Virus record (IMG/VR): IMGVR_UViG_3300045988_165036
Coordinates: 32,001 to 96,000 of that record
DNA: 64,000 nucleotides
From: a virus
Reading direction: 5' to 3' (one strand)
The notes under the pieces are model-generated. The model made no database searches. It saw only the letters and a program-made list of their open reading frames with translations, and had not been told where the DNA came from. Both the position numbers and the translations under genes were made by a program. Each line of letters starts with the position of its first letter. The stretch's first letter is position 1. Shown here in pieces: positions 14,566 to 42,947 of this stretch.

Positions 14566-14887
14566 GAAAGGACTAGTTGTTAAGTAGTCTGTTTTATAGA
14601 CAAAAGCACAGACAGGTGGACAAGTGTATTATTACATTTCTTGTCTGTACTTGCTTGACAACAGGTTTCAAGCTTTAGTGAATGCTGTTTTACGAAAGTA
14701 ATCCTGCATGATGAACTACGTTGGGGAAAAGGTTAAAAACGCATCTTCGGATGTACTCGTCAGTCTGAAGCTCTGCGAGTGCCAATCAAGAAACTGTGCT
14801 AGTGTCCTGCATAGATAACAGAGAAACACATATACCCTCCCCGACATTGGCAAGACGAAAATTACTCCGAAAGGAAGGCATCCAGAG
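14566..14887 (+). ncRNA. candidate IscB omegaRNA (locus 1)
   Basis: ~320-nt non-coding, hairpin-rich stretch immediately 5' of iscB on the same strand. It shares ACTACGTT (14715-14722) and GGATGTACTCgtCAGTCTGAaGCtCTGCG (14749-14781), at similar spacing, with the region upstream of the second IscB (37870-37877, 37902-37935). Confidence 0.7.
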
Positions 14888-16135
14888 ATGGAAAACAAAA
14901 TTGAATACTGCTTTGTGGTTGATAAAAACAATCGGCCATTGGCGCCGACGAAAGTTAATAAAGGCTGGTATCTGGTTAGAAAAGGCAGGGCAAAAATAAA
15001 ATCCAGATATCCTATGGTAATACAGTTGGAAAAGGAAGTGGAACCTGATGAAGATGATGAAAGCCATATGGTCTGCGGTATTGATGACGGTTCTATGCAT
15101 GTAGGGCTTGCCATTGTTCAGAAATGTCCTACCAAAAATAAAGTGGTTTTTAAAGGGACGATGGAACAACGCCGGGACGTAAAACATTTAATAGATATCA
15201 GACGTGGATATAGGCGTTATCACCGTTATCATAAAAGATACAGGCAGACAAGATTTAATAACCGTTCATCTTCTAAACGAAGCAACAGGTTGGCGCCAAG
15301 TATCAGACAGAAGAAAGATGCTGTTTTAAGGGTATTGTATCGGCTTAATAAGTGGTGCAACATCCAGGAATACTTCCTTGAAGATGTCTGCATGGATGTC
15401 CGTGCAATGACAGATGGTTACAAACCCTATAGTTGGCAGTATCAGAAATCTAACCGTTTGGATGAAAACCTTAGAAAAGCCGCTATTCTGAGAGATAATT
15501 ATAAATGTCAGGAATGTGGGAAATCCGGCTGTGTGTTAGAAGTACATCATATCAGGGCAAGAAAATATGGCGGAGCAGATACCATTGGGAATCTGATCAC
15601 GTTATGTGGAAAGTGTCATGATAAAACAAAAGGCAGAGAGCGGGATTTTGAAAACAGATATTTTGATATGATCAAATCCCAGCCGAAAAAATTTGATTAT
15701 GCTATGCATGTTATGCAGGGAAAAACCTATCTGAGAGAAAAGATTTCTGAATTAGGAATATTGCATCTTACAAATGGCGGGGATACTGCTAATAAACGCA
15801 TTAACTGGAATATAGAAAAGTCCCATAGTAATGATGCGATATGCATTACAGATAGTATTCCTGATACGTGTGATGTGAAAGAATGGATTATTAAGCCAAT
15901 GAGAAGGAAGTCGAAAGCTAAAACGGATAATGTGTTAGGAATTAAGCATAGGGATTTAGTTTCTTATACATATAAAAATGGAGAAACTCATACAGGATAC
16001 GTCACTGCTTTATATCCAGAACGAGTAGCTTTGAATTTTCAATCAAAAACCAAACATTGTAAAAAAGTAAATGCGCGAAAATGCAAATTGCTTTGGAGGT
16101 TTAATAATATTTATTGGTTAGAACAACGCGTATAA
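14888..16135 (+). CDS. iscB: IscB RNA-guided nuclease (OMEGA system)
   Basis: 415 aa. PLMP-like N-terminus ([24 protein letters not shown]), RuvC-I ([15 protein letters not shown]), Arg-rich bridge helix ([22 protein letters not shown]), RuvC-II (FLEDV), HNH ([22 protein letters not shown]), RuvC-III (HSNDAICI), and a C-terminal TID-like segment. Confidence 0.9.
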
Positions 16136-30913: not shown

Positions 30914-32110
30914 ATGGCAAGACGCGGAAGAATTTGTGAAATGAAAAGAAAGTTTGAAGATTATGATTATGTAATTCTTGGTGTAGGCGGCATTGGTAAG
31001 ACAACGCTCGCGCATGAAGTTGGCAAGAAGATTGCTGGAAGTGACGAAGGAACTTTTATTATTACCTGTGGCGCCGAAAACGAACCAATGCACATTAATG
31101 GGGCGTTTGGAGAGACTGATAAAACCTTTGAGGAACTGGTTGAATGCGTAAATTATCTTTGCGAACATAAAGATGAATATCCACACACTAAGTTTGTTGC
31201 AATTGATTCGCTCGATGAGCTTGTGAGAATTGCGTGCGATTATGTGGTTCGCGAATGGAACAGATTGTGTGAGAAGGCAGGTAAGCCGGAAGACAAGTGT
31301 AAGAGCGTGGCGCAGGCCTATAAGGGGTTCCAAAAGGGAGAGGATCGCGCCATAGATCTGATTATTAAGCAGATCGTAAAACTGAAGGATTCCGGATACC
31401 ATCTTCTTTACATTGGCCACACGAAGGTAAAGAGTTCCACTGATGTTATGCAAGATAACACCAAATTTGATCAGCTCACGTGTAGCGTTCAGCCGAAGTT
31501 CTATAATGCAATCAAAGATAAGGCAAACCTCGCTGTGATGTGTTATTTTGAGAACGAGATTGTTGGCGTTAAAGAAGAAAAGAACCCGTTCAATAAGAAG
31601 ATGGAAAAGAAGGGTACTCTCGTGAATAAAAAGAGAGTTATGCTTTTTACAGACGATTCTAATACTGTTGATACGAAGACTCATTTTGAGTATATTGTCA
31701 ACAAGGCAGATATGAGCGCCGACAATCTTATTGAGGCGGTCGAGGATGCGATTGCCGCAAAACTTGCCGCTCCTGTTGGGGCGCATAAGTCGCCTGAAAT
31801 GGTCGAAATGGCAATGTCTGCGTCCGAGTCTTCTTCCGATGAAGACCTCGACTCAACAGACGATGCCTCTGGCGTTGACGACCTCGACCCAGACACTTCC
31901 AACGTCGATCTCGATATGGACAATGCGGACACTGCTCCGACCATCGACAATCTTCGCGCGGAGATTCAGGGAAAGCTTCGTACAGCAAGCGCAGAGGTGA
32001 AGAAGAAGGCAAGAGAAATTCTGATTACCGAAGCGGCAGACCCGGAGAAGGTCAAGTTGGCGGATGCGACGGTTGAAACGCTGAACAAGATCCTTGCAAT
32101 TCTGGATTGA
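30914..32110 (+). CDS. Sak4-like P-loop ATPase (recombination)
   Basis: Walker A GVGGIGKTT, Walker B FVAIDSLDE, acidic S/D-rich C-terminal region. Confidence 0.6.
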   Translation: MARRGRICEMKRKFEDYDYVILGVGGIGKTTLAHEVGKKIAGSDEGTFIITCGAENEPMHINGAFGETDKTFEELVECVNYLCEHKDEYPHTKFVAIDSLDELVRIACDYVVREWNRLCEKAGKPEDKCKSVAQAYKGFQKGEDRAIDLIIKQIVKLKDSGYHLLYIGHTKVKSSTDVMQDNTKFDQLTCSVQPKFYNAIKDKANLAVMCYFENEIVGVKEEKNPFNKKMEKKGTLVNKKRVMLFTDDSNTVDTKTHFEYIVNKADMSADNLIEAVEDAIAAKLAAPVGAHKSPEMVEMAMSASESSSDEDLDSTDDASGVDDLDPDTSNVDLDMDNADTAPTIDNLRAEIQGKLRTASAEVKKKAREILITEAADPEKVKLADATVETLNKILAILD

Positions 32111-37271: not shown

Positions 37272-37757
37272 ATGATTATTATTGGATTTCCCGGGATTGG
37301 TAAAAGTAGCGTAACTCGCGCATATGAGGGCGACGCCAACACAACTGGTTATATCGACCTTGAAAGCAGTAATTTTGTTAAGGACGACAACTGGGTGAAG
37401 GAATACTGCGACCTTGCTCTTGACCTTGATTTACAGGGATATAATGTTTTTGTTTCGTCTCACAAGAATGTGCGAGAATATTTAGTAGAGAAACAAGACA
37501 TTTTTCCGTACATTATGGTGATATTCCCGTCGAAAGAAATACGTACCGAGTGGCTGAACAGGCTCGAATCTCGTTATATGAAGTGCAAAACTGATAAAAA
37601 CGAAAGAGCTCTAAGCTATATGCGCAACAATTTCGATGATGCCGTAGATGAAATGGAGCACGATGCGATTGTTCATAAGGTTCTGATCACCAAAGAAAAT
37701 ATGAATGATTTGAAGAAGGCGATGGTGGATTATTGGAATAAGTGGTATTCTGAATAA
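37272..37757 (+). CDS. P-loop (nucleotide/nucleoside) kinase-like protein
   Basis: MIIIGFPGIGKSSV Walker A. 161 aa. Confidence 0.55.
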   Translation: MIIIGFPGIGKSSVTRAYEGDANTTGYIDLESSNFVKDDNWVKEYCDLALDLDLQGYNVFVSSHKNVREYLVEKQDIFPYIMVIFPSKEIRTEWLNRLESRYMKCKTDKNERALSYMRNNFDDAVDEMEHDAIVHKVLITKENMNDLKKAMVDYWNKWYSE

Positions 37758-37759
37758 TT

Positions 37760-38038
37760 AAAAAAATAATTTTATTTGGAGGATATTGTGGTCAACCGCC
37801 CAGTTTCCTAAATGAGATGTGGGCTTGAGTAATCGAGCCCACTGATTGATCAGACTAAGTGTTTCGAGCACTACGTTATCAAAGAATATATAGGCACCGT
37901 TGGATGTACTCTCCAGTCTGACGCACTGCGGTATGTGATTAAACAGTTCTGATGGGTAGGAACAGTGTTGCATACGAAAACCTTTGAATAACATTGTCGT
38001 GGAGTAACTACTCTAACATACAGGAGGTTATAGAAACA
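37760..38038 (+). ncRNA. candidate IscB omegaRNA (locus 2)
   Basis: ~280-nt non-coding stretch 5' of the second iscB. Shares ACTACGTT (37870-37877) and GGATGTACTCtcCAGTCTGAcGCaCTGCG (37902-37930) with locus 1. Hairpin gtgggcttgagtaatcgagcccac. Confidence 0.65.
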
Positions 38039-39286
38039 TTGGTGTATGTGTTAAACAAACAAAGTAATCCCTTGATGCCTTGTAAAGAAGCAAAAGCAAG
38101 AAAATTGCTAAAACAAAATAAAGCTATTATAGTAAAATATGAGCCATTTACAATTCAATTGACTTTTGAGTGTGAAAATCAAACGCAAGAAATTTCTCTC
38201 GGAGTTGATGCTGGAAGTAAACACATTGGCATTTCTGCAACAACAGAGAAACAAGTTTTGTATGAAGCAGACGTTGAATTAAGAAACGATATCGTAGATA
38301 AACTCTCTTCTCGTAGAGAAGCAAGAAGAACGAGAAGAAACAGATTGAGATATCGTCCCACAAGATTCAACAATCGAGTTCATTCAAAACACAAAGGTTG
38401 GCTTGCTCCAAGCATCGAGCAGAAAATCAATTCGCATATTCAGGCAATCAAAAGACTTCATCAAATTCTTCCGATTTCAAAAATTATTGTGGAAACGGCG
38501 CAGTTTGATATTCAAAAAATTCAGAATCCAGATATTGAAGGAGAACAATATCAACAAGGTGATCAAATGGGGTTTTGGAATGTACGTGAATATGTGCTTT
38601 TCAGAGATGATCACAAGTGTCAGTATTGTAAAGGAAAATCTAAAGACAATCGATTAAATGTTCATCATATTGAGGGTCGTAAGACGGGCGGAAACGCTCC
38701 GAATAATTTAATTACGTTGTGCGAAACCTGCCATAATGATTATCATCAAGGGAAAATTCAGCTAAATATTAAGCGCGGAAAGAGCTTTCGAGATGCGACA
38801 TTTATGGGCATTATGAGAAAGACATTGTTGTTGAGATTAAGGGAAATATATCCGAATGTTCAAGAAACTTTTGGTTATATTACGAAGAACACCAGAATTG
38901 AAAATAGTCTTCCGAAAGAACATTATATAGACGCAAGATGTATTAGTGGAAATCCTTTAGCAAAACCGTTAGGATATTATCTTTATTAAAAATGTGTTAG
39001 AAGACAAAATCGTAAAATGACGAAAGATAATTTTATCAGAGGTGGAGTTAAAAAAAGTAATCAGTTAGTTGGCGATGTCTTCGGATTTGGGTTATTTGAT
39101 ACGGTTGAATATCAAAAGAAGAAGTATTTTGTGTTTGGTAAACGAAAATCTGGATTTCTGGACATTAGAACACTTGATGGAGAAAAAGCTAACAACGGCT
39201 CTATAAGCTACAAAAAACTAAAATTAATTCAAAAGAATAATAATATATTAACAGAAAGGAGTTTGTCAATTCCTACGCAACCATAA
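38039..39286 (+). CDS. iscB: IscB RNA-guided nuclease with one in-frame TAA (38987-38989)
   Basis: PLMP (QSNPLMPCKEAKARKLL), RuvC-I (GVDAGSKHIGISA), bridge helix (RREARRTRRNRLRYRPTRFNNR), RuvC-II (IIVETAQ), HNH (CQYCKG..VHHIEG..NLITLCETCHND), RuvC-III (HYIDARCI). After ..GYYLY-TAA the same frame continues KCVRRQNRKMTKD... (TID-like) to 39286. Confidence 0.85.
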
Positions 39287-39316
39287 AGGGATTGCTGTTT
39301 CTTTGGCAATAGTATT

Positions 39317-39481
39317 ATGAACGAGGCGGTCAAAGTTGGGTTTTATCCAAAAGATTTGTTTATACTTTTAGCGAAGAACCGGCTTGTGGCAGATTGGCAA
39401 ATTCAGAATCAAAAGAACGCAAGAAAGTTTCATAGTTATTTTTGGGTCTTCGAAAAGTCTGACAAAAAAATAGAATATTAA
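39317..39481 (+). CDS. small hypothetical ORF (54 aa)
   Basis: ATG 39317 to TAA 39481. No motif and no strong SD. Confidence 0.3.
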   Translation: MNEAVKVGFYPKDLFILLAKNRLVADWQIQNQKNARKFHSYFWVFEKSDKKIEY

Positions 39482-39488
39482 TTTTTGC

Positions 39489-39515
39489 AAAACCTCTTGA
39501 CAAACAGGAGGTTTT
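39489..39515 (+). terminator. terminator-like hairpin whose loop carries the -35 box
   Basis: aaaacctc (39489-39496) pairs with gaggtttt (39508-39515). The loop contains TTGACA. Confidence 0.45.
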
Positions 39516-39525
39516 GCGCTATAAT
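39497..39525 (+). promoter_or_regulatory. sigma70/sigmaA-type promoter
   Basis: TTGACA 39497-39502, 17-bp spacer, TATAAT 39520-39525. Confidence 0.75.
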
Positions 39526-39613
39526 AATAGTAGAAATGAAAGATTGGCTTTATTTACAAAGGATTTTTGAAAAGGAGAGAAAAAAATGACTATTGTTGAC
39601 TTTTATAAGAAAG

Positions 39614-40801
39614 GTGAAAGCGATTATAAAAACAATTCGAGTAATGTTGCTTCCAAACAACAAACAGCAAACTAAATTATTTCAATATGCCAATACTGCT
39701 CGTTTTGCTTATAACTGGGCAATAGGAAGAGAACAAGAAAATTATAAGAATGGTGGAAAATTTATATCTGATGGAGACTTACGAAAAGAGTTTACACAAT
39801 TAAAGAAAACTTCTGAATATGCGTGGCTAAACAATGTTTCTAACAATGTAACAAAGCAAGCAATTAAAGATGCTTGTGAGGCGTACAAAAATTTCTTTAA
39901 GGGAATTACAAAGTCCCCACGATTTAAGAGTAAGAAATATTCAATGCCGAAATTCTACCAAGATAATGTAAGAATTCAGTTTACAGACACACATGTAAAG
40001 ATTGAGGGTTTTGCTACGTCTAAGAAAAAGAATAAGCAAAGACTTAACTGGATAAGACTTGCCGAACGCGGAAGAACACCTATTGGAAATACAAAGTATA
40101 TGAATCCACGCATTAAATATGATGGACTTAATTGGTATATCACAGTTGGAATTGAATACGAAAATTCTACCGCTCCTCCAACCAACGAAGGTGTTGGAAT
40201 CGATTTAGGCATTAAAGATTTGGCAATATGTTCTGACAAGAACAAGTATCAGAATATAAACAAAACCCAAAGAGTTAAGAAGTTAGAAAAAAGAAAGCGC
40301 AGGCTACAACGTTCCATATCAAGAAAATATGAGAATAATAAGAAAGGAGAGCGTTACTGCAAAACAAGCAATATTATAAAAAGTGAAAAAGAACTTTTAA
40401 AATTGAATCACAGACTAACGAATATTCGTCAGAACTACCTACATCAAACAACATCTGAAATTGTAAAACGAAAACCAAGTTTTATCTGTATGGAAGATTT
40501 GAATGTGAGTGGAATGATGAAGAATAAACATTTGTCTAAAGCAGTTCAGCAACAAGGGTTTTATGAATTTAGGAGACAGATTGAATATAAGTCTGAGTGG
40601 AATAACATTCCAGTAATTATAGCAGATAGATTCTTCCCGAGTTCTAAGTTATGTAGTTGTTGTGGAAATATCAAAAAGGATTTGAAACTTAGCGACCGCA
40701 TTTACAAGTGTGAATGTGGAAATATCATAGATAGAGATTATCAAGCAAGTCTAAATCTGAAAAGACATGGAGAAATGTTATTAGAACAATCTGCATTATA
40801 A
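39614..40801 (+). CDS. tnpB: TnpB RNA-guided nuclease (IS200/IS605 OrfB family)
   Basis: RuvC triad contexts GIDLGIKD / CMEDLN / IDRDYQASLN. Zn-ribbon CSCCG..CECG. N-terminus IRVMLLPNNKQQTKLFQ. GTG 39614 chosen as start (the longest ORF starts at TTG 39593). Confidence 0.9.
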   Translation: MKAIIKTIRVMLLPNNKQQTKLFQYANTARFAYNWAIGREQENYKNGGKFISDGDLRKEFTQLKKTSEYAWLNNVSNNVTKQAIKDACEAYKNFFKGITKSPRFKSKKYSMPKFYQDNVRIQFTDTHVKIEGFATSKKKNKQRLNWIRLAERGRTPIGNTKYMNPRIKYDGLNWYITVGIEYENSTAPPTNEGVGIDLGIKDLAICSDKNKYQNINKTQRVKKLEKRKRRLQRSISRKYENNKKGERYCKTSNIIKSEKELLKLNHRLTNIRQNYLHQTTSEIVKRKPSFICMEDLNVSGMMKNKHLSKAVQQQGFYEFRRQIEYKSEWNNIPVIIADRFFPSSKLCSCCGNIKKDLKLSDRIYKCECGNIIDRDYQASLNLKRHGEMLLEQSAL

Positions 40802-40975
40802 CACTTTCAAGTTAATGCAGATATGTACTGGCACGTTAGTCAGGAATTTACGCCTATAGAGTGTACAAGAACTTGTGAGTAGTATATCAGAAATGATTAC
40901 AAAAGCATATACGATGAAATAGGAATGAAACATAAAAGTTTATAACTTTTTATAAGTTTTCAGTAACGGAAGCCA
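40700..40975 (+). ncRNA. candidate TnpB omegaRNA/reRNA (locus 1); boundaries approximate
   Basis: By the known architecture, the omegaRNA overlaps the tnpB 3' end and the right end of the element. Perfect 10-bp hairpin atctgcatta/taatgcagat spans the stop codon. A ~175-nt non-coding tail runs up to the primase start. Confidence 0.45.
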
Positions 40976-40977
40976 CG

Positions 40978-41988
40978 ATGCTCACAGATGTTAAACAAAT
41001 GTTAATAGAAAACCCAGAGCACATCGTGGAATTGCTCGAAAGGTTTGAGTTCTGCCACATCCATCTCAAACGAACAGAAATTCGGTTTGCCCGTAACGAA
41101 GAAGGTGGTCAGAACATCTCAATTCGGCTCGAAGATAATCCTTCAATTTATGTTAAAGATTTCGTAACAAATGAGAACGGCGACATTATCGCGTATATAA
41201 TGAAAAGTCGTTCGGTGAAGTTTGTCGAAGTCTTGTCGGAAATCAAGAGCGTTCTCGGGCTTGGAGACGATTGGGAGCCCCCAAAGCGCGATATGTTGTT
41301 CGGTGGATTTTATGACCGAATTGGAGAGGATAGACATATTGAGATTACGACGTATCCCGAATCGATTATGGACCAATATGTCGATAAGGGAAATCGGCGC
41401 TGGCTCGATGATAACATTTCACTTGCGGTTCAGCACGAGTTCGGGGTCAGATTTGACCCGATAGAAGACCTGATTGTGTTTCCGTGGAGGTCGCCCGTCG
41501 GAGGAGAGATTATCGCAGTAAAAGCTCGCGTTAATCACCCGTTGGAAGATGGTCAACAGAAATATTGGTATGTTTACAAGGGCGCCGTCAGTAATTCTCT
41601 TTATGGTATTATGGAGAATTATAGCGGACTGTTTGGAAACGAAATTTGTGTTGTTGAAAGCGAAAAAGCCGTCCAGCAACTGGCGACAATGGGATATCGA
41701 AACACAGTGGCTCTTGGGTCGAGCAATTTGTCAGAGGAGCAGGCTCGGCTAATTATGACGCTTTCTCCGACTTCCGTTGTGTTCTTGTTGGACGAAGGAC
41801 TGGAAAAGGAACACACGATGAAAAATGTGGAAACATTGCGTCAGTATTGCGTATTAAGAGATTTGCCGATTCGTTGGTGGAATTGGACGAAAAGCTCGGT
41901 TGTTGATGGGAGCGGGAAGAATAGTCCGACCGATTTGGGGAAAGAGAGGTTTGACAAGGTTATGAGAGAGGAGCTAGAAGTGATTTAA
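40978..41988 (+). CDS. TOPRIM-domain DNA primase
   Basis: VVESEKAVQQLATMGY (TOPRIM Glu) and VVFLLDEGLE (DxD-like). Lies upstream of the polymerase. Confidence 0.6.
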   Translation: MLTDVKQMLIENPEHIVELLERFEFCHIHLKRTEIRFARNEEGGQNISIRLEDNPSIYVKDFVTNENGDIIAYIMKSRSVKFVEVLSEIKSVLGLGDDWEPPKRDMLFGGFYDRIGEDRHIEITTYPESIMDQYVDKGNRRWLDDNISLAVQHEFGVRFDPIEDLIVFPWRSPVGGEIIAVKARVNHPLEDGQQKYWYVYKGAVSNSLYGIMENYSGLFGNEICVVESEKAVQQLATMGYRNTVALGSSNLSEEQARLIMTLSPTSVVFLLDEGLEKEHTMKNVETLRQYCVLRDLPIRWWNWTKSSVVDGSGKNSPTDLGKERFDKVMREELEVI

Positions 41989-42947
41989 TGGGCGCATTTA
42001 AAGATATAACTGGACAGCAATTCGGAGACTTCATCATCGACTCTTTTGACCCGACAAAAGGTAAGTATAAATATTATTGGAATTGTCATTGTGTAAAATG
42101 TGGTTATAAAAAATCAGTAGAAGGAAGCAGTATTAGAGCCGGAAATAGTACAAGATGTATTTGTGATAAGTCTTTTGGACGAAGAGAAAGTCTCGGATAC
42201 GAAAAAGATATATCTGGAAAAGTTTATGGTGGTTTAACTGTTTTGGGCTATTGCGACACGAAAAGCACACGTTCAAGATGGCTGTGTAAATGCAATTGTG
42301 GGAACGAGGAAGTTTTTAGTATTTCACAATTAAAAAGAAGAAAAAATCTGATGTGTTCCCAATGTGTGGAAAAATATAAAGATATAAGAAATGTGATTTC
42401 AGAAGAAAATTTAGACTCTAATGGGATTCCAATAAATATTGTTCAATCTACTCAAAGAAAACAAAACAAATATGAAATTCAAAACGATGAGACTATTATC
42501 AACGATAAAATTATTGTAGATAGTAAGTTTATGGATTGTTTGAAATCATTCGATAGATACATTAGTATAGACAGCCGTGGATATGCATATTTTTCATATT
42601 GTGGTCAAGATGTATATTTACACAGACTTTTGACAAACACCTCATTATTTTTCGATACGAATGGCAAAGACATAGAAATAATCGATCATATAAACAGAAA
42701 TAGATGCGATAACAGAATTGAAAATTTAAGAACGATTAAAAAATCTGAAAACTCCATCAATTGTTCAGTATATTCAAATAATAAAAGTGGGTATAAAGGT
42801 ATTTCTTGGCTTGAAAGATTACAAAAATGGCAAGTGAACATTCAATACAGAAAGATAAATTATTATGTTGGCGTGTTTGAAAATATTGATGATGCAATTT
42901 TAGCAAGAAAACGAGCAGAAATGGATTTATTTGGAAAGGTGAATTAA
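41988..42947 (+). CDS. HNH-AP2 homing endonuclease (free-standing)
   Basis: IDHINRNRCDNRIENLR (HNH_3-type) and SGYKGISWLERLQKWQVNIQYRKINYYVGVF (AP2-type). N-terminal Cys-rich repeats. Confidence 0.8.
   Translation: MGAFKDITGQQFGDFIIDSFDPTKGKYKYYWNCHCVKCGYKKSVEGSSIRAGNSTRCICDKSFGRRESLGYEKDISGKVYGGLTVLGYCDTKSTRSRWLCKCNCGNEEVFSISQLKRRKNLMCSQCVEKYKDIRNVISEENLDSNGIPINIVQSTQRKQNKYEIQNDETIINDKIIVDSKFMDCLKSFDRYISIDSRGYAYFSYCGQDVYLHRLLTNTSLFFDTNGKDIEIIDHINRNRCDNRIENLRTIKKSENSINCSVYSNNKSGYKGISWLERLQKWQVNIQYRKINYYVGVFENIDDAILARKRAEMDLFGKVN

Follow-up and report, generated by a model that had tools for sequence, protein, structure and literature searches.

What becomes of a compact RNA-guided nuclease gene when one in-frame stop codon separates its catalytic core from the domain that follows is the question raised by a locus in a 64,000-nucleotide stretch of viral DNA (IMG/VR record IMGVR_UViG_3300045988_165036, positions 32,001 to 96,000; hereafter the window). 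The window carries two genes for IscB, a small RNA-guided nuclease related to Cas9; they are called IscB 1 and IscB 2, and the second of these is cut by a single TAA at 38987-38989. We consider it likely that IscB 2 is a recent nonsense pseudogene, or a truncated IscB allele, that has become fixed in one lineage of human-gut phages. In the scenario that we propose, one C>T transition changed the Gln317 codon from CAA to TAA in the sampled lineage. Translation from the strong ribosome-binding site at 38023 would then end after RuvC-III and yield a protein of 316 amino acids (aa), retaining the PLMP, RuvC, bridge helix and HNH parts and losing a basic segment together with the beta-barrel that would contact the target-adjacent motif (TAM). 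By analogy with OgeuIscB, a protein without this TAM-interacting domain (TI or TID) would no longer find and cut duplex targets, which would make the element a newly formed pseudogene or, at most, an impaired allele, with downstream codons that would still be intact since too little time has passed for their decay.

An IscB locus interrupted by one stop codon

The features of the locus referred to throughout, with the basis of each call where one applies, are the following.

37755-37757, plus strand: stop codon TAA of a 161-aa P-loop gene lying immediately upstream of the IscB 2 leader
37774-37790, plus strand: guide position of the omegaRNA in the 5' flank of the scaffold (presumed extent)
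37791-38011, plus strand: complete omegaRNA scaffold, Rfam HEARO RF02033 (cmscan)
38023-38028, plus strand: Shine-Dalgarno sequence AGGAGG of iscB 2 (read from the sequence)
38039-38986, plus strand: IscB codons 1-316, with PLMP, RuvC-I, bridge helix, RuvC-II, HNH and RuvC-III (Pfam, phmmer)
38987-38989, plus strand: premature stop TAA at codon 317, ancestrally Gln, CAA (homologues and related loci)
38990-39286, plus strand: IscB codons 318-415 and natural stop, probably now untranslated or poorly translated
39017-39286, plus strand: 89-aa open reading frame (ORF) of gene callers, from the ATG that is Met326 of the intact protein
39287-39321, plus strand: untranslated 3' part of the IscB element, with an approximate right boundary (comparison with copies L002 and L003)

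The original prediction, made from the letters of the window, had described a non-coding leader of about 280 nucleotides (nt) after the stop of the upstream gene, followed by a divergent second IscB with all catalytic motifs, whose frame resumes unshifted behind a single TAA, and each of these points is borne out. The leader measures 281 nt (37758-38038, between the P-loop gene stop and the IscB 2 start) and holds a full HEARO omegaRNA. The frame opens VYVLNKQSNPLMP, with TTG at 38039 or GTG at 38042 as start codon, and the duplex between the AGGAGG at 38023-38028 and the anti-Shine-Dalgarno sequence is calculated at -11.0 kcal/mol, which is stronger than at most starts, the median over 25 genes of the window being -8.1. 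From 38039 to 39286 the total frame comprises 415 codons, of which codon 317 is the sole interruption; behind it run 98 further codons, unshifted and with no other stop until the TAA at 39284-39286. By our own estimate, a random 98-codon open stretch would arise at the base composition of the window with a chance of about 0.001, and the read-through 415-aa product matches full-length 415-aa proteins over 100% of its own length at up to 93-94% identity (E 1e-260). Judged by these figures, the open continuation past codon 317 is evidently not due to chance.

The first 316 residues identify IscB 2 as an IscB through their matches to known domains and structures. Pfam RRXRR covers residues 2-174 (E 2.8e-66) and Pfam HNH residues 194-237 (E 2.8e-09), while phmmer matches residues 1-316 to the OgeuIscB structures 7utn and 7xht (E about 1e-45), in an alignment that spans the PLMP, RuvC-I, bridge-helix, RuvC-II, HNH and RuvC-III motifs. 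The PLMP motif is present as NPLMP at residues 10-14, aligned to the PLMP region of OgeuIscB; the split RuvC domain is represented by GVDAG (D57), VETAQFD (E152) and HYIDA (H295/D298), all of which align with OgeuIscB; the arginine-rich bridge helix reads RRTRRNRLRYR; and between RuvC-II and RuvC-III lies an HNH domain with a conserved CxxC...HH...CxxC pattern (C194/C197, H209-H210, C228/C231). These RuvC and HNH residues are invariant columns in our alignment A2 of 36 sequences. Identity to IscB 1 is 33% across the first approximately 320 residues.

The upstream RNA is complete. The HEARO match found with cmscan scores 128.6 bits, against a gathering score of 83, with E 2.6e-26 and coverage of model positions 1-211 of 211; HEARO is the RNA family now recognised as the omegaRNA of IscB. 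A cognate omegaRNA thus stands directly upstream of iscB 2 on the same strand, nearly identical to the copies of relatives and with no change unique to the window. In IscB systems the guide sits 5' of the omegaRNA scaffold, and similarity to element copies elsewhere (L002, L003) begins at about 37789-37791. Phages with an IscB at the same site, described below as sister phages, have about 830 bp extra between the 161-aa gene and the omegaRNA, holding three small ORFs, which is absent from the window (window 37758-37790 compared with L111 8911-9755 and L085 5517-6338). The junction of the missing segment shows a GTG(G) microhomology and directly adjoins the scaffold of the omegaRNA at its 5' end. 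Because these approximately 830 bp are missing at that end, the guide-position sequence of the window is unlike that of its relatives; in those phages it makes up the ribosome-binding site and the beginning of the first small ORF of the three.

The locus is an OMEGA element that consists of an omegaRNA and iscB, is carried by a phage and has no tnpA nearby: between 37272 and 40978 there is no TnpA-like ORF of the kind that would mark an IS200/IS605 element. Non-autonomous elements with iscB only are common. The ends of the element are approximated from copies in other contexts, and on the right, similarity to the copies in unrelated surroundings (L002, L003) stops at ...TTATGAA, near 39321, beyond which only sister phages remain similar, as far as 39547. 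The hosts of this conserved site, between the 161-aa P-loop gene and a primase gene, are human-gut phages of roughly 95-150 kb, and a megablast search of 37272-39600 against GenBank phages gave no match.

In its overall plan IscB 2 resembles OgeuIscB-type IscB-omegaRNA systems (Altae-Tran 2021; Kato 2022, PMC9640706), with a HEARO-family omegaRNA directly upstream, all catalytic residues conserved, and the domain order PLMP, RuvC-I, bridge helix, RuvC-II, HNH, RuvC-III and a C-terminal barrel like that of the TAM-interacting domain. It differs in being more compact (415 aa against 496 aa), in being phage-borne with no TnpA nearby, in having a C-terminal part with no detectable sequence similarity to that of OgeuIscB, and above all in the nonsense codon 317, through which the functional architecture loses its C-terminal third.

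The ancestral codon and the age of the stop

The codon that the TAA replaced can be read from the relatives of IscB 2. Thousands of proteins were matched by the read-through 415-aa query, and the best 120, which were examined, are co-linear with it, 399-436 aa long and 76-94% identical. Of 106 homologues with a locatable flanking motif, 104 have Gln as residue 317, a position that is nearly invariant in the 36-sequence alignment. At the DNA level, we gathered 30 related loci (9 IMG/VR stretches and 21 metagenome contigs) with a degenerate pattern that left codon 317 free; this codon is CAA or CAG in all 30 and a stop in none. The copies at the same genomic site, three of them within this set (L085, L096 and L103) and a fourth outside it (L111), all have CAA. 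Comparison with homologous phage loci had been proposed in the original prediction, and none of those compared has a stop at codon 317. Since Gln and CAA or CAG are found in the relatives, including those at the same site, the TAA at 38987-38989 is one C>T transition away from the ancestral CAA.

The same-site copies provide the closest comparison. In L085 (IMGVR_UViG_3300045988_158589), L111 (Logan SRR31227296_385), L096 and L103, a block corresponding to window 37788-39547 lies between the 161-aa gene and the primase gene, with a DNA identity to the window of 93-95% over the block and 91-94% over the 1,248-nt frame; the intact proteins of such relatives include P0001 and P0128. The locus is inherited vertically. 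These sister copies share with IscB 2 the site, the 415 codons free of indels and the omegaRNA, and differ from it in having CAA for codon 317 and a glycine as residue 9, as well as in the approximately 830 bp upstream of the omegaRNA and in carrying other DNA downstream in place of a TnpB element. As a separate observation, a CAA>TAA change is found at codon 414 of the same-site IscB in L103/L101, shortening the protein by two residues; this second Gln-to-ochre change in the gene family is probably harmless.

The stop itself recurs wherever the sequence does. Logan and ENA together have 30 contigs, 20-134 kb long, with the exact 316-aa product, and as many with the exact 89-aa downstream ORF, and these contigs, which form a single near-clonal lineage, may stem from one person or from many. 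A MEGAHIT contig from SRR2236714 (ERZ963251) is 100% identical to the window where the two overlap, this run belonging to PRJNA217052, a Fiji community cohort according to the papers found, and a SPAdes contig of 134,110 bp (ERZ2663838 NODE_1) shows 100% identity to it along 11.8 kb. No intact protein nearer than 93-94% identity to the stop allele occurs in the collection. Every record of the exact sequence carries the stop, which on the strength of these records is a real allele fixed in its lineage.

Key to dating this allele is the condition of the codons around it. Against 8 distinct full-length relatives, only two codons are unique to the window, Q317* and G9S, and codons 318-415 contain no unique change, with nucleotide differences of 4 to L103 and 7 to L001. 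Because the downstream codons are without window-specific change, we infer that the stop is recent. The original prediction had offered a recent nonsense mutation as one of four explanations and had named a loss of conservation downstream as a sign of a decaying pseudogene; the former accords with the CAA and CAG codons of relatives and the undecayed downstream part, and the latter is not seen. G9S (codon 38063-38065, GGY>AGT) lies directly before the PLMP motif and is unique to the lineage, Gly9 being found in 83 of 84 homologues with the stop allele as the lone exception. As both changes fall at conserved positions, G9S together with Q317* may hint at relaxed constraint. What distinguishes IscB 2 from the same-site copies is thus a single disabling change in an otherwise intact gene, reproducible in the output of two assemblers.

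The lost segment and alternative explanations

Codons 318-415 comprise the conserved basic motif KCVRRQNRK, a small beta-barrel and a C-terminal tail, and are co-linear with full-length homologues; in distant relatives the basic motif reads KxVRxxNRQxHK and is the most conserved part of the segment after RuvC-III. The 98 aa were modelled with AlphaFold2 as a small SH3-like beta-barrel at a predicted local distance difference test score (pLDDT) of 82, exceeding 90 for residues 31-80, while a full-length model of P0001 based on 36 sequences (pLDDT 54.9) was too poor for use. The best Foldseek matches of the 98-aa model in the PDB are IsrB (8dmb), HfmIscB (9k2z) and OrufIscB (9nvu), which are weak (E 0.014-0.07) and sit amid generic SH3, Tudor and KOW barrels. 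A profile of the C-terminal part had no match among PDB sequences at E <= 1, and the 98 aa had none in Pfam or PHROGs. The position in the protein and the weak fold match suggest a faint resemblance of the modelled barrel to the TAM-interacting domain, in keeping with the TID-like C-terminus that the original prediction had proposed.

With query residue 308 aligned to OgeuIscB residue 352, the stop falls at about OgeuIscB residue 361, just past RuvC-III. The original prediction had placed it between RuvC-III and the TID, which holds for its position after RuvC-III and needs amending on the other side, as a basic, WED-like linker also lies behind the stop and not the TID alone. The 12-residue segment of IscB 1 to which the stop had been aligned is a plausible counterpart, although this alignment is loose and the two C-termini are too divergent for BLASTP. 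WED/P1D and the TAM-interacting barrel do not form one polypeptide with the nuclease core, the coding sequence of the barrel lying behind the TAA and hence outside the main product. In OgeuIscB, WED/P1D and TI/TID bind the omegaRNA nexus and linker (R373, H374, R376, N488, N489) and read the TAM (H380, K381, E460-R462), and the Y469A substitution abolishes cleavage (PMC9640706); removal of the TID turns the enzyme, which otherwise acts on double-stranded DNA, into a binder of single-stranded targets only (bioRxiv 10.64898/2026.03.03.709405). By this analogy, the 316-aa protein would probably be unable to find and cut duplex DNA.

There is little to suggest that the stop is tolerated or favoured for a purpose, whether through a TI-less core that loads the omegaRNA and acts on single strands independently of a TAM or through halves that reassemble as a natural split IscB, and we regard this as very improbable. 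In a functional split IscB, the 316-aa core and an 89-aa protein produced by re-initiation at the ATG at 39017 would assemble on the omegaRNA into an active enzyme, an arrangement that has little chance of being correct. The break does fall at an inter-domain linker just past RuvC-III, the downstream part is fully conserved, and the in-frame ATG lies 28 nt after the stop, where gene callers begin the 89-aa ORF. However, this ATG has no Shine-Dalgarno sequence, its calculated pairing of -1.5 kcal/mol falling short both of the median at real starts (-8.1) and of that at all ATGs of the window (-2.2), and it is the ordinary Met326, present in intact relatives. The 89-aa product would furthermore be without KCVRRQNRK, with which the most conserved motif in this region begins, no relative is divided at codon 317, and the short C-terminal-only relatives in metagenomes vary continuously in length and match offset. 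The suggestion of a split IscB in the original prediction has accordingly found no positive evidence.

We also looked for a natural stand-alone C-terminal family, using the 98 aa as a phmmer query on a set of 1.84 billion representative proteins, and rejected it: the many short matches form a continuum of lengths, as fragments or decayed copies would. Two short C-terminal relatives were traced to their contigs, which have low coverage and lengths of 694 and 788 bp, with a broken IscB upstream in one and unrelated sequence in the other.

Readthrough of the TAA, at a low level or as a programmed event, could in principle supply some full-length IscB and act as a throttle on expression, with decoding by a tRNA-Gln(UUG) or by a suppressor tRNA from another part of the phage genome or from the host; we attach only a slight probability to this explanation. 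It would accommodate the intact downstream frame, and L084, a contig with a relative of IscB 2, encodes a tRNA-Gln(UUG). It is generally known that tRNA-Gln can read UAA as a near-cognate codon, which would, with tRNA-Gln(UUG), restore the wild-type Gln317, and should be rare; in bacteria UAA is the most efficiently terminated codon. A tRNA scan of the window and 25 related loci found only Gln(UUG), Pro, Thr, Ser and Trp tRNAs, in two relatives, and thus no tRNA in the window and no suppressor tRNA in the 25 loci. In the window TAA is an ordinary terminator, ending 31 of 41 long plus-strand ORFs as well as iscB 2 itself at 39284. Nor does the TAA at codon 317 behave as a programmed signal or a reassigned codon, being conserved in no relative (0 of 30 related loci, 0 of 106 homologues), and readthrough, too, was raised in the original prediction and has gained no positive evidence. 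Among the long same-frame segment pairs of the window that are split by one stop, only IscB 2 is a known single protein. A genome-wide recoding of TAA was considered separately and is rejected, TAA being the dominant terminator of the window.

A useful truncate, in which the TI-less 316-aa protein and its omegaRNA act on single-stranded DNA or RNA without a TAM, or in which the omegaRNA is used in trans by an intact IscB, encoded by another copy or by a phage infecting the same cell, seems to us hardly credible. OgeuIscB without its TID (R-IscB) folds, and binds and acts on single-stranded RNA and DNA (bioRxiv 10.64898/2026.03.03.709405), the omegaRNA of IscB 2 is intact, and the phage lineage in which the allele persists has been met with 30 times. 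R-IscB and IscB 2 are alike in being IscBs without a TAM-interacting domain, but R-IscB is engineered and retains P1D/WED, a domain in contact with the omegaRNA and with the first base pair, whereas the IscB 2 truncation is natural and removes everything after RuvC-III, including the most conserved basic motif and the stretch that leads from RuvC-III to the barrel. The stop is moreover confined to one near-clonal lineage, and G9S, at an invariant residue, would suggest relaxation and not a new function. If it were true that the truncated protein acts on single strands, engineered TID-less IscB would have a precedent in nature, though nothing points there.

Finally, the T at 38987 might be a sequencing or assembly error, or a minority variant picked by the assembler, which the single-base difference from relatives and the reliance on assemblies would allow, but the identical truncated product and 89-aa ORF on 30 Logan and ENA contigs, the base-for-base agreement of MEGAHIT and SPAdes assemblies, and the lack in the collection of any intact protein more than 93-94% identical make the error proposed in the original prediction most unlikely.

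Several considerations nevertheless weigh against a recent nonsense pseudogene. The omegaRNA and all catalytic motifs are intact, and the occurrence of the allele in a phage seen in 30 assemblies implies that the mutation is not strongly deleterious to the phage. Two lineage-specific changes are too few for a statement on relaxed selection from the ratio of non-synonymous to synonymous substitution rates (dN/dS), and the proposed loss of function leans on OgeuIscB, whose C-terminal part is no more than a distant relative. As the allele is known from assemblies, a mixed CAA/TAA population within samples is possible.

Neighbouring elements and the probable decay of IscB

The replication module around IscB 2 is crowded with selfish elements, namely two introns, two IscBs, a TnpB, an HNH_3 ORF and an intein. 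Two group I intron matches stand in tandem at 326-594 and 652-989 (84.6 and 48.5 bits, gathering score 50). IscB 1 (14888-16135) is an intact 415-aa ORF with RRXRR and HNH, and since its upstream HEARO match (14619-14865) is weak, at 34.4 bits and under the gathering score, its omegaRNA is divergent. Directly downstream of the IscB 2 element lies a TnpB ORF (39593-40801; Pfam HTH_OrfB_IS605, OrfB_IS605 and Cas12f1-like_TNB), with a perfect TTGACA-17-TATAAT promoter consensus just upstream (39497-39525) and a RAGATH-18 RNA after it (40853-40925, 69.4 bits). TnpB nucleases guided by RAGATH-18 have been described (PMC11061315). The TnpB region (39548-40960) fills a slot that in sister phages is occupied by 1-3 kb of unrelated DNA. 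An HNH_3 endonuclease ORF at 41988-42947 is followed by a 1534-aa DNA polymerase III alpha with an intein (Pfam Intein_splicing; region to 47554), and the sister phage L111 has a DNA polymerase III alpha of 1095 aa and no HNH_3 ORF. Furthermore, a 387-aa ORF at 33289-34452 matches PHROG 1211, '2-aminooxy adenylosuccinate synthetase' (PurZ-like, E 1.2e-47), and Pfam Adenylsucc_synt, on the basis of which the phage may make 2-aminoadenine (Z) DNA; if so, this would matter for the way the phage genome is seen by nucleases, those of the phage itself (IscB and TnpB) among them.

Other relatives of IscB 2 are in varied states of disrepair. Metagenomes are rich in C-terminal-only fragments and frame-broken IscB copies, and also hold a deletion product of PLMP plus C-terminus. 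The latter, P0158 (130 aa, from a metagenome), has the PLMP domain fused to the C-terminus with RuvC and HNH deleted internally, and L113 and L114 are IscB C-terminal remnants beside unrelated or frame-broken sequence; all three look like snapshots of IscB decay. From such sequences, decay appears to be the usual fate in this IscB family.

A search of the literature on IscB pseudogenes in phages found nothing relevant. Reading IscB 2 as a recent nonsense pseudogene, the proper annotation of the locus would be an omegaRNA and an iscB pseudogene with a nonsense codon at position 317, where public calls give hypothetical genes of 316 and 89 aa. The intact copies of sister phages and the stop allele would together form a natural pair for probing the region after RuvC-III in a compact 415-aa IscB, and the locus would offer a clean, datable case of the onset of OMEGA nuclease decay in phage genomes.

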